A stretch of 36,492 nucleotides of DNA from assembly GCA_964508365.1 (NCBI GenBank), contig CAZDTP010000041.1, positions 1 to 36,492 of the forward strand, read 5' to 3'. Below, piece after piece: positions 30,938-36,285 of this stretch (positions within the stretch are counted from its first letter, which is position 1; the number at the start of each line of letters is the position of its first letter). The DNA comes from an uncultured archaeon. Lineage in GTDB: Archaea; Asgardarchaeota; Lokiarchaeia; Sigyniarchaeales; SOKP01. The notes beneath the pieces are model-generated. The model searched no databases, was not told the origin of the DNA, and worked only from the letters and a program-made list of their open reading frames with translations. A program made the position numbers and the translations under genes.

Positions 30938-33904
30938 TTAATCCTGAGAAACATAGAAATCGTCGAAATTTTCTTCTAATTGATCAAAGTATAGCTTTCT
31001 CTTTCCAGGTATAACTTTTTCTGTCAGTATTTTTGCTTTCTCGTAGCAGGTAGATGCTTCTATACGCATTCCTAAGTGTTTATAGGACTTGGCTAATTTT
31101 AGAAAAGTGTGAAATGCGAACCAACCTCGTGGGTTGGCTTCTAAAGCTTGCGTAAATTTCTCGATCGCACTTCTATAATTTTTTGAATTCATCAATACTT
31201 CTCCGTATGTATCATACAGATTTGCGTCGAGAGGATCGAGTTCGATGGCTTTTTCAATTGTCTCAAAGGCTTCATCGTATTTTCCGAGATTACTCAAAGA
31301 AATGGATTTATTGTTTAATAACCCTGGTGAATCCGGATAAAGTTCTAAGGCTTCGTCAAGAGTCTTGATCACTTCCAAATCTTTACCCATTGTATAATAG
31401 GTAAATCCTCTCAGTTGATACAATGCCTTACACTCCTGTGGAAATTTTTTCATCATTTCATCGATTAAAGCCATTATCTTATCTCTCATATTATCGTTCG
31501 TGAGAAACAAGTGAATTTTTGCCTCGTAGATATCGTAGTGGTCAGGGCTTAATTCGATTGCTTTTTCAATTTCAACTAAAGCTGCTTCAGTTCCATCTGT
31601 CTCATTTAAAATATAACTATACAATTGATAATACCTAGACAATTGTTTTTTATTCGACCCCAATGATATCGCCTTCTCAAATTCTTCAATAAAGAGCTCT
31701 TTATCTGCTTTACTCGCATTAAAATTGTGCACAATATTAAATCCATGAACTAGTCCAGTAATAATATGAGAAAGTGGGTGATTTGCGTAATGAAATTTCA
31801 CCTTATTGACGATATCTAAGGCTTTTTCAAATTTTCCTCTTGCTAAATACGAGAAAGATAGTATCAAATATGCTGCCGTATCAACGCGGGGATTATGTTT
31901 GAGTAAATTGAATCCTACTACATGTTTAATCCAATTTTTACCCTCTTTATAATTATTTGTAATCGTATATAATAGAGCTTTCATTACAGAGATTTCCAAG
32001 TCCTTAGGATTTGTTTCAATTAAAGAATTAATAAGCTCCAAAGGTTTGTCAATTGCTTTTGCACAGCATTCTTTATCTGTTAGGGCGCACAGGAATTTAG
32101 TTCGTTGGAGAAAATAGTTATCAGGGTATTCAGTTAATGCCTCTTCAACAATGCTTAAAGCTTTATCGTGGTCATAATTAATCAATATCTGTGCTTTTTG
32201 AGCAATAAGCGAGGCATCATAAGTTCTGCTTAACCCAGATTCGATGACTTCTAACGCTCTATTGAATTTACCCATAAAGAAATAGGTTATTGATTTAAAC
32301 AAATAACCTATGTATTCGTCAGGGTGTTTTTTGATGATTTCTTCTGTTTGTCCTAGCGAATCTTCCAACTCTCCATTGTAAGTGTAAAATAAATCTTTCA
32401 GAAGCAATATCTCGATATCGCTTAAATTCTTAAGATTCTCTGTAAGCAAGTCGTTTACTTTAGATAGTTTTCCCTTCGATAATTCACTTTCAATGTCCGT
32501 TAAGAATTCCGAATTCTTAGGAAAGTATGTCTTTTTGAACTGAGATGTTCTAATAAAGTTAATTTTCGTCAAATAAAAAATGTCCAAGGTATCGAAAATT
32601 CTGTTGTGTAAGAAATAATACGCTTCACTATCGGCTGATTTGTTCATCGTACTCGCCGTTTCGGAGGTACTGAAATTTTGAATTACTTCGAATACATTTT
32701 GGAAAGCGATACCCTTTATTTTATCTGTATGGTTGATCAAACTCTTCTCGCTCTCAAATTTATATGCTAAATGCTCGATATACTCAGGAATGAATTTCCT
32801 GAGAGCCGGTTTCAAATCGTCGTGGAACAAATTACTACGCATTTCGCTTGTTATATCTTCAAGTAACTCATTGATATCGGGTATTCGATATTGAAGTCCA
32901 CTTGCTTTCTGAAATTTACTCAAATACGTAAACTTCCTAATGTAATCCTCGATAATTACATTGAGCATTTTCTCTAACCGCTCTTCTGCCTGAATGTAGT
33001 AGGTGCAATCATTGCTTACATTTAATTTAAAGAAACGTATCGGATAGTTGTTATCTTCAACGATCTTCTCGATAAAGAAGTTCAGTGTCGTTAGCTTTAT
33101 ATCGTATTCTATTGCAAAATCTTTAGTTGTGATGAATTTAGGGTACTGATCCGGGTGATTAATAGCGAGATAAAGCAAAATTTTATCAAAATCCGCCTCG
33201 TCAGACAAAGTGCTTTCAAATTTAGTATAATCCAACCTAAGCACTATGTTCAAAAATCTATATTTTATCCCATCATCAGCGATATCGTAATCGTTAAAAA
33301 ACTCAGTTACCTTGTCTGTTATTACATCAACTCTCTTGCTCTCTTCGTCTAATATTGATTGGCGATCTAAATCGTATTTTTTTAACATATTGAAATATTC
33401 GAGTTCACCTGAACTAGTAATCTGATAGTCGCGGTTATCTTTTTCAATAAGATTACTTTCTAGTAAAATATTTAAATTCTTTGACAATGAAGATTGATTA
33501 ATTGAAAGAGGATCCTCAAGGAAGTCTGACCATTTACAATGGTGGTTATTGTACAGCATCCATAGAATCCAATCATCGTAATTTCTCTTATTTGTTATAA
33601 TCTCAGGTGGATAATTCAATGTTTTTTCAAGCCCATCTTTAACTTGAAGTTCAGCATACTGTTTTCGACCTTCAGGTGTAATTTTATATTCTCCCTTCTT
33701 CTCCTTCTCAATATAACCGCTACTAATTAGGATTGTAAGATATTTCGACAAAGTTGCTTGGCTTATATTTACGGGTTCTGATTTAAAATCAGACCATGAA
33801 CACTGGTCGTTATTATAGAGCATCCAGAGGATAATATGCTCAAAATCTTTGTTGATCTTCATAGGCATAATTATTCCTTCAGGTGGAAATTTTACTATAC
33901 TCAT
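30938..33904 (-). CDS. Tandem winged-HTH plus TPR-array protein, putative transcriptional regulator
   Basis: Two N-terminal repeats ILWMLYNN..C.WSDF...P..I.Q..LSK.L..L...IEK...Y.IT..G (MarR/ArsR-like wHTH). The C-terminal half is TPRs, e.g. NNKSISLSNLGKYDEAFETIEKAIELDP and YDTYGEVLMNSKNYRSAIEKFTQALEANP. Confidence 0.85.
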   Translation of the reverse strand: MSIVKFPPEGIIMPMKINKDFEHIILWMLYNNDQCSWSDFKSEPVNISQATLSKYLTILISSGYIEKEKKGEYKITPEGRKQYAELQVKDGLEKTLNYPPEIITNKRNYDDWILWMLYNNHHCKWSDFLEDPLSINQSSLSKNLNILLESNLIEKDNRDYQITSSGELEYFNMLKKYDLDRQSILDEESKRVDVITDKVTEFFNDYDIADDGIKYRFLNIVLRLDYTKFESTLSDEADFDKILLYLAINHPDQYPKFITTKDFAIEYDIKLTTLNFFIEKIVEDNNYPIRFFKLNVSNDCTYYIQAEERLEKMLNVIIEDYIRKFTYLSKFQKASGLQYRIPDINELLEDITSEMRSNLFHDDLKPALRKFIPEYIEHLAYKFESEKSLINHTDKIKGIAFQNVFEVIQNFSTSETASTMNKSADSEAYYFLHNRIFDTLDIFYLTKINFIRTSQFKKTYFPKNSEFLTDIESELSKGKLSKVNDLLTENLKNLSDIEILLLKDLFYTYNGELEDSLGQTEEIIKKHPDEYIGYLFKSITYFFMGKFNRALEVIESGLSRTYDASLIAQKAQILINYDHDKALSIVEEALTEYPDNYFLQRTKFLCALTDKECCAKAIDKPLELINSLIETNPKDLEISVMKALLYTITNNYKEGKNWIKHVVGFNLLKHNPRVDTAAYLILSFSYLARGKFEKALDIVNKVKFHYANHPLSHIITGLVHGFNIVHNFNASKADKELFIEEFEKAISLGSNKKQLSRYYQLYSYILNETDGTEAALVEIEKAIELSPDHYDIYEAKIHLFLTNDNMRDKIMALIDEMMKKFPQECKALYQLRGFTYYTMGKDLEVIKTLDEALELYPDSPGLLNNKSISLSNLGKYDEAFETIEKAIELDPLDANLYDTYGEVLMNSKNYRSAIEKFTQALEANPRGWFAFHTFLKLAKSYKHLGMRIEASTCYEKAKILTEKVIPGKRKLYFDQLEENFDDFYVSQD
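33395..33892 (-). repeat. Duplicated wHTH module (residues ~5-83 and ~97-170)
   Basis: Both copies share PPE-II, ILWMLYNN, WSDF, LSK, IEK and IT motifs. Confidence 0.85.
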
Positions 33905-33926
33905 ATTTAAATCATATTCGAGTAAC

Positions 33927-33934
33927 TTTATAAA
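33927..33934 (-). promoter_or_regulatory. TATA box for leaderless transcription of the wHTH-TPR gene
   Basis: TTTATAAA at -30 to -23 relative to the A of ATG at 33904, preceded on the minus strand by BRE-like CATAAAA. Confidence 0.6.
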
Positions 33935-33951
33935 TTTTATGTTCGCGCTAT

Positions 33952-33982
33952 ACTTCGAAGTTCGTTCGAACTTCTTAAAGTT
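33952..33982. promoter_or_regulatory. Cluster of overlapping palindromes (putative operator) between divergent promoters
   Basis: ACTTCGAAGT (33952-61), GAAGTTCG-TT-CGAACTTC (33957-74) and AACTT-CTTA-AAGTT (33969-82). Confidence 0.6.
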
Positions 33983-33994
33983 AAACTATATAAG
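33978..33994 (+). promoter_or_regulatory. BRE plus TATA promoter for the micro-ORF transcript
   Basis: AAGTTAAA-CTATATAAG. Predicted start is near 34016, giving an A-rich leader that contains the SD. Confidence 0.55.
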
Positions 33995-34055
33995 AACCGC
34001 GAAGTTAATAAAATTAAAACAAAAAAAAGAACTAAAAAAAACGAGGTAAAAAAAG

Positions 34056-34127
34056 ATGGAAGAAAGTGAGAAAAGAACGATAATAATCAAAAACGATGGG
34101 TATATTCCTGACCTTTTTGGTATGTAA
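34056..34127 (+). CDS. Micro-ORF 1, 23 aa: MEESEKRTIIIKNDGYIPDLFGM
   Basis: GAGGT SD 8 nt upstream, T7 tract downstream, paralogous to micro-ORF 2. Confidence 0.65.
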   Translation: MEESEKRTIIIKNDGYIPDLFGM

Positions 34128-34141
34128 ATGAAATTAATACA

Positions 34142-34148
34142 TTTTTTT
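34142..34148 (+). terminator. T7 tract after micro-ORF 1
   Basis: Oligo-T 14 nt after the stop, mirrored 200 nt later. Confidence 0.45.
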
Positions 34149-34254
34149 AATGATTGTAATAATTAAAAATTCGCAATTTAACCACAAACAATAAATTAAC
34201 ATAAAATAAAACTAAAAAAAATCAAAACAAAATAAAAAAAACGAGGTAAATAAT

Positions 34255-34329
34255 ATGAGACGAAAAGAGAAGGAAGCCCAAAATATCCTAAACCCGACGG
34301 GATATCATATTACCACATTCAGATTTTAA
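34255..34329 (+). CDS. Micro-ORF 2, 24 aa: MRRKEKEAQNILNPTGYHITTFRF
   Basis: GAGGT SD 7 nt upstream, T7 tract downstream, paralogous to micro-ORF 1. Confidence 0.65.
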   Translation: MRRKEKEAQNILNPTGYHITTFRF

Positions 34330-34341
34330 ATTAAATTAAAC

Positions 34342-34348
34342 TTTTTTT
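34342..34348 (+). terminator. T7 tract after micro-ORF 2
   Basis: Oligo-T 12 nt after the stop. Confidence 0.45.
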
Positions 34349-34896: not shown

Positions 34897-35469
34897 ATAC
34901 CAGCCACACCGTTGCATTACCCCATCGCATGGGGGCTCTCAAAATTAGACAAACGATTGAATCTACCAGGTTTGATTGTTGGTTCATTTATACCTGATAT
35001 TGAGGTGCCAATTTTAATCATCTTTTTTAATGGAGTACTCCCAGATCATTTCATCTTGCACAGCTTGATTGGTGCGCTTACTATAGGAACTATTATCTCA
35101 ACTTTGGTTACCGTTATGCTGTATCCGATTTTGACTTCGTGGTTCTTTCGCCTCGATAAAGTTAAAATAAAGGAATTATGTAGGTTAACCCCGATTCTTG
35201 TGTTATCCTGTATGCTCGGAAATGTGTTCCACATTCTGTTAGACATTCCAATGCATCCATTTAATCCTGTCCTGTGGCCTTTTGTAGATCCATATAGTAT
35301 TGTTGGAATTCTAGTCCTTGTCTTTGCCGTAGATGGGAATATAAGTTTGGGATTTTTAATTGCGAATATTCTGATTAATGCGATAATGGGATTATTTACG
35401 CTTGCCATATTAATTAAAAGTAGGAGAAATCTGTGGGAGCAAACTTTAATAGGAAAAAAAAGTTCGTAA
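34897..35469 (+). CDS. DUF4184-like membrane metal-dependent hydrolase; homology start falls on ATA 34897 (first canonical start TTG 34912)
   Basis: (I)PATPLHYPIAW, IVGSFIPDIE, HSLIGA, HILLD motifs. AAGGTG SD 7 nt before the ATA. Confidence 0.72.
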   Translation: MPATPLHYPIAWGLSKLDKRLNLPGLIVGSFIPDIEVPILIIFFNGVLPDHFILHSLIGALTIGTIISTLVTVMLYPILTSWFFRLDKVKIKELCRLTPILVLSCMLGNVFHILLDIPMHPFNPVLWPFVDPYSIVGILVLVFAVDGNISLGFLIANILINAIMGLFTLAILIKSRRNLWEQTLIGKKSS

Positions 35470-35503
35470 TCAGCTTTTGGGAAGGAAAATTTACACTTTT
35501 AAC

Positions 35504-35980
35504 TTACCAGCCGCTTGGATCGAAAAAGCTGTTATACTTTTTCAGCCAATTAAAAATCGTGTATTTGGAGTAATCTTCAGTTATTTCTTCTCCAATTTGG
35601 ATATCTCGTAGAGCTACTGAGCAAATACCAGGTTCATCTTCAGGTTGTCCCGAGTTAGGATTAAACGAATGGTTAACATATCTATTATTATCCAAAATGA
35701 AAATTAAAGCGTCGATATCACGCTCGCAATATGAGTAGTTGAGTAATATAGTCATAAAGTTTTCAATTTGCGGCGATTTAATAGAAGAATCAAACATAAT
35801 GAATTGTTCTTTGGTAATAATCATCACATCTTGCTCACGAGCATGCCACCAAACTGTTCCCTTAGGAATTAATTTCTTTGCAAATAATCCCAATCCATGA
35901 ATTTTACTTGGTCTTACTACGGCATATTCTTCAATAGGATTAATTGAACTACGATTGTATCGTATTACTATATCGGTCAT
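35504..35980 (-). CDS. SET-domain protein-lysine methyltransferase
   Basis: SKIHGLGLFA, RYVNHSFNPN and ALRDIQIGEEITEDY correspond to the SET signature motifs GxG, NHS and EELxxDY. Confidence 0.85.
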   Translation of the reverse strand: MTDIVIRYNRSSINPIEEYAVVRPSKIHGLGLFAKKLIPKGTVWWHAREQDVMIITKEQFIMFDSSIKSPQIENFMTILLNYSYCERDIDALIFILDNNRYVNHSFNPNSGQPEDEPGICSVALRDIQIGEEITEDYSKYTIFNWLKKYNSFFDPSGW

Positions 35981-36112: not shown

Positions 36113-36285
36113 ATGGATTTCATTAAAATATATACAATGTTTCTTACAATCGTAGGTTTTGCGGCTCTATTTGCGGTAGGGTACGTATTAGTAAGTTTTG
36201 GAAGTCTATTTTTTTAGCTCTTGGTATTGCACTCTTGATTCCCGGGATTGTCGGAATAGTTAAATCCCGAGCAAATAAGGAATAG
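36113..36285 (+). pseudogene. Small two-TM membrane protein split by a frameshift in a T7 run
   Basis: MDFIKIYTMFLTIVGFAALFAVGYVLVSFGSLFF stops at 36215-17. The shifted frame continues LALGIALLIPGIVGIVKSRANKE to a stop at 36283-85. GGGTGA SD upstream. Confidence 0.5.

Follow-up and report, generated by a model that had tools for sequence, protein, structure and literature searches.

Transcription factors of the RRNPP(A) group have an N-terminal helix-turn-helix (HTH) of the XRE/Cro-C1 type, which is absent only in Rap, and a C-terminal peptide-binding domain that resembles tetratricopeptide repeats (TPRs). Their peptides are made as pro-peptides with a secretion signal; these are exported and processed, and an oligopeptide permease then takes them up again. 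For the leaderless communication peptides (LCPs) of Firmicutes, whose receptor is the RRNPP-family protein RopB/Rgg, experiments have demonstrated both export and re-import (PMC10518010). Circuits that combine an HTH-TPR receptor with a peptide from a small open reading frame (micro-ORF), namely RRNPP(A) and RopB-LCP, are restricted to the Bacillota and their mobile elements (PMC12700828). Here we describe a locus on a 36,492-nt contig from a member of the Lokiarchaeia (CAZDTP010000041.1, or C41 in our numbering; we refer to the whole contig as the window). In this locus, a regulator with winged HTH (wHTH) and TPR domains lies head-to-head with two unannotated micro-genes, A and B (Table 1). 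The micro-genes are very probably real coding genes that are functionally coupled to the regulator.

The window is from a genome of 4.07 Mb in 149 contigs, with 32% GC. A first-pass annotation had described two micro-ORFs with Shine-Dalgarno (SD) motifs, identical leaders spaced by 200 nt, T7 tracts, and similar 3' flanks, next to a 988-aa wHTH-TPR gene. All of these features are present in the sequence, and Pfam matches both wHTH and TPR families in the regulator. The two copies of the leader TAAAAAAAACGAGGTAAA are offset by exactly 200 nt, and the 13-nt core of the leader, AAAACGAGGTAAA, has two sites in the 4.07-Mb genome, both of them here. The 3' flanks of A and B have the shared form TAAAT[G/T]AAATTAA...T7. 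More broadly in this genome, GAGGT is found in the SD window of 3.4% of long ORFs versus 0.7% of random positions, and a strong SD core is found for 8.6% of long ORFs versus 2.2% of random positions; the preferred spacing is 6-11 nt. We also aligned the intergenic DNA of seven orthologous loci, from seven genomes. The element ATTC[AG]NNATTTAACC, near the candidate promoter of B, is retained in this alignment, and the spacer around it has many indels.

Table 1. Features of the regulator-peptide locus. Positions are in the window unless a locus is given.
Feature	Position	Strand	Details
Regulator	30938-33904	-	988 aa; wHTH and TPR families in Pfam; AlphaFold2 model; orthologues and paralogues
TATA-like box, regulator	33926-33938	-	AAAATTTATAAAG on minus strand; about 27 nt ahead of regulator ATG; putative promoter
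Palindrome	33957-33974	.	GAAGTTCG-TT-CGAACTTC, perfect; candidate operator or upstream activating site
TATA-like box, rightward transcript	33986-33997	+	CTATATAAGAAC; conserved in seven loci
Leader, copy 1	34033-34050	+	TAAAAAAAACGAGGTAAA (18-mer); SD GAGGT at 34043-34047, 8 nt ahead of ATG of A
Micro-gene A	34056-34127	+	23 aa, MEESEKRTIIIKNDGYIPDLFGM; subfamily A; from ORF listing
T7 tract after A	34142-34148	+	15 nt past stop codon of A; putative archaeal-type oligo-T terminator
Candidate separate promoter of B	34169-34184	+	ATTCGCAATTTAACCA; about 75 nt ahead of ATG of B
Leader, copy 2	34233-34250	+	TAAAAAAAACGAGGTAAA (same 18-mer); SD GAGGT at 34243-34247, 7 nt ahead of ATG of B
Micro-gene B	34255-34329	+	24 aa, MRRKEKEAQNILNPTGYHITTFRF; subfamily B; from ORF listing
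T7 tract after B	34342-34348	+	13 nt past stop codon of B
Partner ORF (70-99 aa), examples	L049:533-820, L050:477-764, L071:4649-4936	+	also at 17 other loci; absent from window

A and B are members of one family of peptides. We searched six-frame translations of all 42 genomes of the genus with a profile of the peptides, and we aligned 44 members, from 17 of the 42 genomes. (All of the genomes that we compared are metagenome-assembled genomes (MAGs), and counts among congeners are not independent observations.) The ORFs have 22-29 codons and form three subfamilies. Subfamily A, with 15 members from 13 genomes, has the pattern EK-R-x-IIIKN-AG-Y-x-P-x-R-h-x-F. Subfamily B, with 8 members from 7 genomes, has the pattern MKRKEK..ILNPTGY.....R[FY], in which ILNPT, Y, and R are invariant. 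Subfamily C has the pattern V-R/K-h-x-E-G-F-N-P-x-x-L-h-x-R-F/Y. The micro-peptides have charged N-termini, and G-Y/F-N-P and the terminal aromatic residues are conserved. The same profile had no match in 111 genomes from 23 other genera of the order, but this is a short profile, and distant relatives could be missed. The closest relatives of this genome are MAGs labelled Promethearchaeota or Promethearchaeia (for example, Loki_b31, ABR02, ABR04, and ABR11), which confirms the earlier assignment to an Asgard archaeon of the Lokiarchaeia lineage. We also noticed an invariance at the nucleotide level in subfamily A: CGT specifies the Arg that lies four residues from the C-terminus, and it does so in each of the 14 members with Arg at this site. 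The exception at this position is in the window (34113-34115), where the codon is CTT. Other Arg codons in the micro-ORFs are AGA or AGG.

In relatives, the usual gene order is the regulator (minus strand), an ORF of 70-99 aa (plus strand; the partner ORF), C, A, and B. In this genome, a single deletion, whose junction is visible in the seven-genome alignment, removed both the partner ORF and C. It thereby fused the SD of A to the conserved promoter and 5' leader of the rightward transcript. The first-pass annotation spoke of two peptide variants, which is too few for the system as a whole: the genus has three subfamilies, as well as the partner ORF that was lost from this genome. Other losses affect only the larger ORF (in G005), C (in G021), or B (in G048). 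Another congener, G008, has two full C-A-B triplets. (These duplicated triplets flank a gene with an RNase_H_2 domain (PF13482), in L053, G008:C22:125000-130200; the duplication may have occurred via a mobile element.)

In most of the orthologous and paralogous cassettes, the conserved partner ORF separates the regulator from the micro-ORFs. Its motif is MAQA..APEVL.PQVLV..K.L..VF..IKYNARISEE..IN......., followed by an R-containing tail that mostly ends in NF or NY. Another family of the order has a relative (..KKMKYNPRYL..; L032:1026-1301), and a tblastn search of the rest of this genome gave no match better than E = 0.15. Pfam assigned no family to the partner ORF or to the micro-peptides. 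In nearly all cases, both kinds of protein have a conserved aromatic or hydrophobic residue at the C-terminus, and by eye, they seem alike in EE-x-I-x-I-N and Y-N-P/A-R-Y, which is an impression only. Homology of the micro-peptides to the C-terminal part of the partner ORF could not be demonstrated, and we rejected it (the scores from hidden Markov models were around 0 and the hhalign probability was 0.08%).

Are the micro-ORFs coding? A 23-codon open frame is not rare in AT-rich DNA (at 32% GC, we estimate a chance of about 16% per start), so we placed the evidential weight on conservation in relatives. First, the start, the frame, and the position of the stop are kept in all 35 of the subfamily members that we examined, and the 44 aligned family members likewise retain all three. 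Indels within the ORFs are multiples of three, while those in the spacers are irregular. Second, the pooled pairwise dN/dS (the ratio of nonsynonymous to synonymous substitution rates) is 0.42 for subfamily A, 0.44 for B, and 0.52 for C. Third, differences within subfamily A are most common at the third codon position (949, versus 594 at the first and 471 at the second), and codons in the conserved core vary synonymously (ATA/ATC/ATT, GCA/GCG/GCT, GGA/GGG/GGT/GGC, and TAT/TAC). As for expression signals, nearly every start in the family has an SD core 7-9 nt ahead of it. This is usually GAGGT, with AGTGA, AAGG, or GGAGG variants in several members. Most members also have a run of 5-12 Ts at most 30 nt past the stop (it is absent in five members of subfamily A). 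Given the conservation of the frame, the indels in multiples of three, the dN/dS ratios, and the synonymous variation in the core, we judge A and B to be translated genes under moderate purifying selection.

The alternative is that the ORFs are non-coding, and are either chance ORFs within repeated promoter and terminator DNA, small RNAs, or leader peptides for attenuation. Besides the frequency of 23-codon frames, this explanation could point to the two copies in this genome, whose signals are better conserved than the peptide sequences, and to the invariant CGT codon in subfamily A, which hints at constraint on the nucleotides. But it conflicts with the retention of the frame, the in-frame indels, the synonymous variation in the core, and dN/dS values below 1. 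Structured RNA is not apparent either: the folding energies of the micro-genes do not exceed those of shuffled sequences (the z-scores for the minimum free energy were 0.54 and -0.22), and nothing in the whole window matches an Rfam family at the gathering threshold. Also, the downstream genes differ by species and each ORF has a T-tract of its own, which makes it unlikely that these ORFs attenuate a specific operon. Overall, we consider it extremely unlikely that the ORFs are non-coding.

The distribution of the peptides links them to the regulator. In the 42 genomes, the family matches form 20 clusters, and 17 of these lie immediately upstream of a regulator homologue, in divergent orientation. 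(We retrieved the region around each new match and then searched it with the regulator sequence.) The remaining three clusters are the second triplet in G008, which is 2.5 kb off, and two clusters in G052. Looking from the other side, eleven other congeneric genomes have a full-length orthologue of the regulator (59-88% identity) next to its upstream region. With this genome included, 12 of the 12 genomes that have the orthologue and the adjoining upstream region carry peptides there. Six of the 17 clusters are beside paralogues, whose best segments are 40-51% identical to the query (L059, L067, L068, L069, L072, and L073), and the peptides at paralogues are distinct variants, such as ..IIIIEHAGYNPVYPRY, ..IIMIKNAGYNTQYFRF, and ..IMIWNFGFNPALNELIK. 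The main check that could have refuted the first-pass reading did not do so: conserved, SD-led micro-ORFs with the predicted G[YF]...F-type motif adjoin the upstream side of homologous regulators, both orthologues and paralogues.

The genes beyond the peptide clusters vary: they include YdjM/SET, GNAT, RNase-H-like, 12-transmembrane, leucine-rich repeat-wHTH, and ferredoxin genes. Since these are not conserved, the conserved unit is the regulator and the small genes, without an enzyme or a transporter. Near the 20 clusters, we found no conserved gene for export, maturation, a protease, a permease, a target, or immunity. From its genomic distribution, the peptide family is tied to a family of regulators with three wHTHs and a TPR domain (3xwHTH-TPR) in one genus of Lokiarchaeia.

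Two of the neighbourhoods deserve a comment. In G052, a pair of C and A peptides lies between YdjM-like and SET-domain genes, with no adjoining regulator (L065:2325-4009). YdjM-like and SET-domain genes also follow the peptides in the window (34912-35980) and in G014. And this genome's sole paralogue of the regulator (locus L004; G000 contig C56:14745-16505, minus strand; 640 aa) is 47% identical to the N-terminal 410 residues of the regulator. It is divergent from a gene for a small Ras/Rab-like GTPase, not from micro-ORFs.

The best-conserved non-coding DNA of the locus is the first 120 nt or so by the start of the regulator. The minus-strand TATA-like element is present at this position in all seven orthologous loci, and its distance from the ATG implies that the regulator's mRNA is leaderless. 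The rightward TATA-like box precedes the partner ORF in relatives; in this genome, the deletion puts peptide A under it. The palindrome is between these back-to-back boxes and is upstream of both. It is invariant in 7 of 7 aligned orthologous loci, and even when up to 2 mismatches are allowed, the genome has no second site. (One paralogous locus, L069, has a related pair of half-sites, GAAGTT..AACTTC.) In archaeal promoters, activators usually bind upstream of the TATA box. We infer from the sequence that the regulator binds this palindrome.

Does the regulator belong to a known family of peptide receptors? In Pfam, the regulator matches winged-helix families (HTH_45, HTH_34, MarR, and HTH_5; residues ~25-87 and ~129-168), the last third of the protein matches many TPR families, and no XRE-type HTH is found. 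The AlphaFold2 (AF2) model, which was built on a 26-sequence alignment, is confident (mean pLDDT of 83.7) and has three winged helices (wHTH1 at 21-75, wHTH2 at 109-162, and wHTH3 at 236-305; helix-helix-helix-strand-strand). These are followed by long helices (309-411), a flexible linker with low confidence (409-427), and a TPR solenoid of ~540 aa (447-985). For residues ~460-985, the best matches, which we took as the top 50 from Foldseek and the best 60 of 191 matches to PDB profiles, include OGT, APC3/6/7, TTC7B, Tom70/71, LbcA, and designed TPRs, and none of them is an RRNPP receptor. With VIA-align, RapI has Z = 15.8 (rmsd 8.5, 316 residues aligned) and phi3T Rap has Z = 15.6 (rmsd 8.1, 272 aligned), which is within the band of dozens of unrelated TPR proteins, such as OGT, APC, and LGN (the top Z is 18.8). 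Since the regulator has three winged helices instead of an XRE HTH, and since its solenoid fits TPRs of the OGT/APC/TTC7 type no worse than it fits Rap, the regulator falls outside the RRNPP family, with which it has only the general design in common, namely a DNA-binding head and a TPR sensor. The first-pass annotation had suggested an RRNPP-like pair: the pairing of regulator and peptide is well founded, but an RRNPP regulator it is not (three winged helices and a generic TPR solenoid).

The regulator family itself is large. It comprises dozens of clusters at 50% identity in metagenomes, and the genomes of this genus have from several to over twenty matches each, so the 3xwHTH module is expanded. 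We found no relatives in viral contigs, and therefore no support for a viral origin like that of arbitrium. PADLOC gave only weak matches, to wHTH and TPR, for the regulator.

What might the peptides do? The best overall explanation is a peptide-regulator feedback module, although we would rate it as slightly short of an even bet. The tandem winged helices of the regulator would bind the palindrome and so control transcription in both directions, that of the regulator's leaderless mRNA and that of the peptide genes to the right. The peptides, products of 22-29 residues, would be made with no signal peptide and no conserved maturation enzyme. They would then feed back on the regulator by binding its TPR solenoid as ligands, which would close the loop, and each paralogue of the regulator would carry its own variant of the peptide. 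TPRs are classical binders of peptides and of C-terminal tails, and by analogy, an RRNPP-like ligand model is plausible. That the peptide is the regulator's ligand is possible, but we would lean against counting on it. When we predicted the complex of residues 428-988 of the regulator with peptide B, which was entered as the 37-aa frame from stop to stop and so had 13 non-native residues at its N-terminus, the score was 0.12 (the mark is 0.32), a result that counts on neither side of the binding question.

Several of our findings weigh against the feedback module. A dN/dS of about 0.45 indicates only moderate constraint. Because the genome has just this one palindrome site, some output would still be needed for a loop that is closed and has no other target. 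Many paralogues of the regulator, such as the one on C56, do not have such peptides. In G052, two peptide clusters have no regulator nearby, although this genome is fragmented and its orthologue is cut at a contig edge. Finally, the partner ORF is a commoner neighbour of the regulator family than the micro-peptides are. It could be the true ligand, and the peptides could be outputs.

If so, then the peptides would be small effectors, perhaps like short beta-hairpins, that act on other targets, and the TPR domain would sense the partner ORF or another protein. Divergent gene pairs are commonly a regulator and its target, and the uniqueness of the palindrome leaves the peptides as the only obvious regulated products. 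The peptides' copy number and subfamily content also vary freely by species, as in the deletions of C, B, and the partner ORF and the duplicated triplet in G008. But the surroundings of the peptide clusters have no conserved target, transporter, or immunity gene, and the peptide variants are strictly co-inherited with the diverged paralogues, as would be expected for cognate pairs of receptor and ligand. (Co-descent of the cassette would give the same pattern.) This is the main rival to the feedback module, and we consider it unlikely, but by no means far-fetched, that the peptides are outputs rather than ligands.

Another explanation is that the peptides are extracellular signals for quorum sensing: they would leave the cell without a leader, be taken up again, and bind to the TPR receptor, as in the RRNPP and LCP systems. 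The logic of the cassette is similar, with a receptor, adjoining micro-ORFs, and peptide "dialects" that are specific to each paralogue. The lack of a hydrophobic signal sequence had been raised as a problem for this idea at the outset. The absence holds, as we found no signal peptide, hydrophobic signal segment, or pro-region in the 22-29-aa products. It is less of a problem than was feared, because the LCPs of Firmicutes dispense with a signal sequence (PMC10518010), so extracellular signalling is possible in principle. Nevertheless, the N-termini of the peptides are charged; no exporter, protease, or oligopeptide permease is conserved in or near the cassette; the regulator's kinship to RRNPP receptors is limited to the generic TPR fold; and RRNPPA systems have been described solely for Bacillota and their mobile elements (PMC12700828). 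Signalling from cell to cell is speculative, and we view the quorum-sensing explanation as improbable. If it were correct, then cells would release the leaderless peptides, cognate 3xwHTH-TPR receptors would sense them, and this would be the first peptide-based communication between receptor and ligand in Archaea, with a convergent origin in an Asgard lineage. The chance of this discovery seems small to us. It would imply that the dialects (A, B, C, and the paralogue-specific variants), together with autoregulation via the palindrome, give Lokiarchaeia signalling that is kin-specific or depends on cell density.

Or, the peptides could be precursors of ribosomally synthesized and post-translationally modified peptides (RiPPs), whose modifying enzyme is encoded elsewhere. 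The peptides are as small as short precursors and have conserved G-Y/F-N-P and terminal aromatic residues. The cassettes of two distant paralogues (in G020 and G018a) also include a gene for a B12-binding radical S-adenosylmethionine (SAM) protein. However, we did not detect peptides of the family at these radical-SAM loci. None of the 20 peptide clusters has a conserved maturase, RiPP recognition element (RRE)-type protein, or transporter, and the peptides lack the organization into leader and core. That the peptides are RiPP precursors seems very improbable. As to the radical SAM gene itself, it is about 1.3 kb past the partner ORF (L057:1089-2540 in G020, with an equivalent in L058, in G018). 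The regulators of these cassettes are distant paralogues (42-44% identity), without detected peptides of the A, B, or C types. The gene might point to modification of peptides in that clade.

Elsewhere in the window, a micro-ORF of 34 aa (36113-36217, plus strand; MDFIKIYTMFLTIVGFAALFAVGYVLVSFGSLFF) encodes a hydrophobic product. It is kept in a congener (L055:3176-3280), has no Pfam family, and probably encodes a small membrane protein. A tRNA search of the window found none.

To our knowledge, gene regulation by dedicated micro-proteins has barely been charted in Archaea. At 22-29 codons, a gene generally falls below the length that annotation pipelines call. In this case, comparative genomics alone was enough to show that a family of micro-genes is coding and that it travels with a lineage-specific family of Asgard regulators, so looking for micro-ORFs beside expanded regulator families can pay off in uncultured lineages. 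The system is small and directly testable: it needs two synthetic peptides, a recombinant protein, and a palindrome of 18 bp. It bears on whether transcription factors that sense peptides arose independently in the archaeal relatives of eukaryotes, and the sensor is a long TPR solenoid of a eukaryote-like kind.

We found no description in the literature of a pairing of wHTH-TPR regulators with micro-genes in Archaea. The cassette is new, as are its protein families, and so far, it is confined to one genus of Lokiarchaeia. It is analogous to the RRNPP and leaderless-peptide circuits, not homologous to them. Like the RRNPP(A) systems (PlcR-PapR, NprR-NprX, Rgg-SHP, PrgX-cCF10, and AimR-AimP), it has a cytoplasmic DNA-binding regulator with a C-terminal domain of the TPR type, micro-ORFs immediately beside the regulator, diverged paralogues with their own peptide variants, and an operator (here, a candidate) in the shared intergenic region. 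Unlike them, it has a DNA-binding part of three winged helices rather than an XRE/Cro-type HTH; a canonical TPR solenoid of ~540 aa, to which Rap is no closer than OGT, APC, or LGN; peptides with neither signal sequence nor pro-region; and an archaeal host. The LCPs that are sensed by RopB/Rgg are also short leaderless peptides that are encoded beside the receptor gene and have receptor-specific "codes" (PMC10518010), but the peptides described here, at 22-29 aa, exceed them in length, and their N-termini are charged.

The best structural and profile matches of residues ~460-985, which are the TPR domains of OGT, APC3/6/7, Tom70/71 (with the Hsp70 tail), and LGN, bind extended peptides or C-terminal tails in a concave groove. 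But these proteins have no fused DNA-binding domain and no dedicated micro-genes, and their likeness to the regulator is at the level of the fold. Finally, other archaeal wHTH regulators (of the MarR, ArsR, or HTH_45 types) resemble this one in their N-terminal wHTH, in having a probable operator that is palindromic and flanked by divergent promoters, and in likely autoregulation. What sets the Lokiarchaeia regulator apart from them is that each chain combines three wHTHs with a TPR solenoid and that a dedicated family of micro-genes adjoins it.

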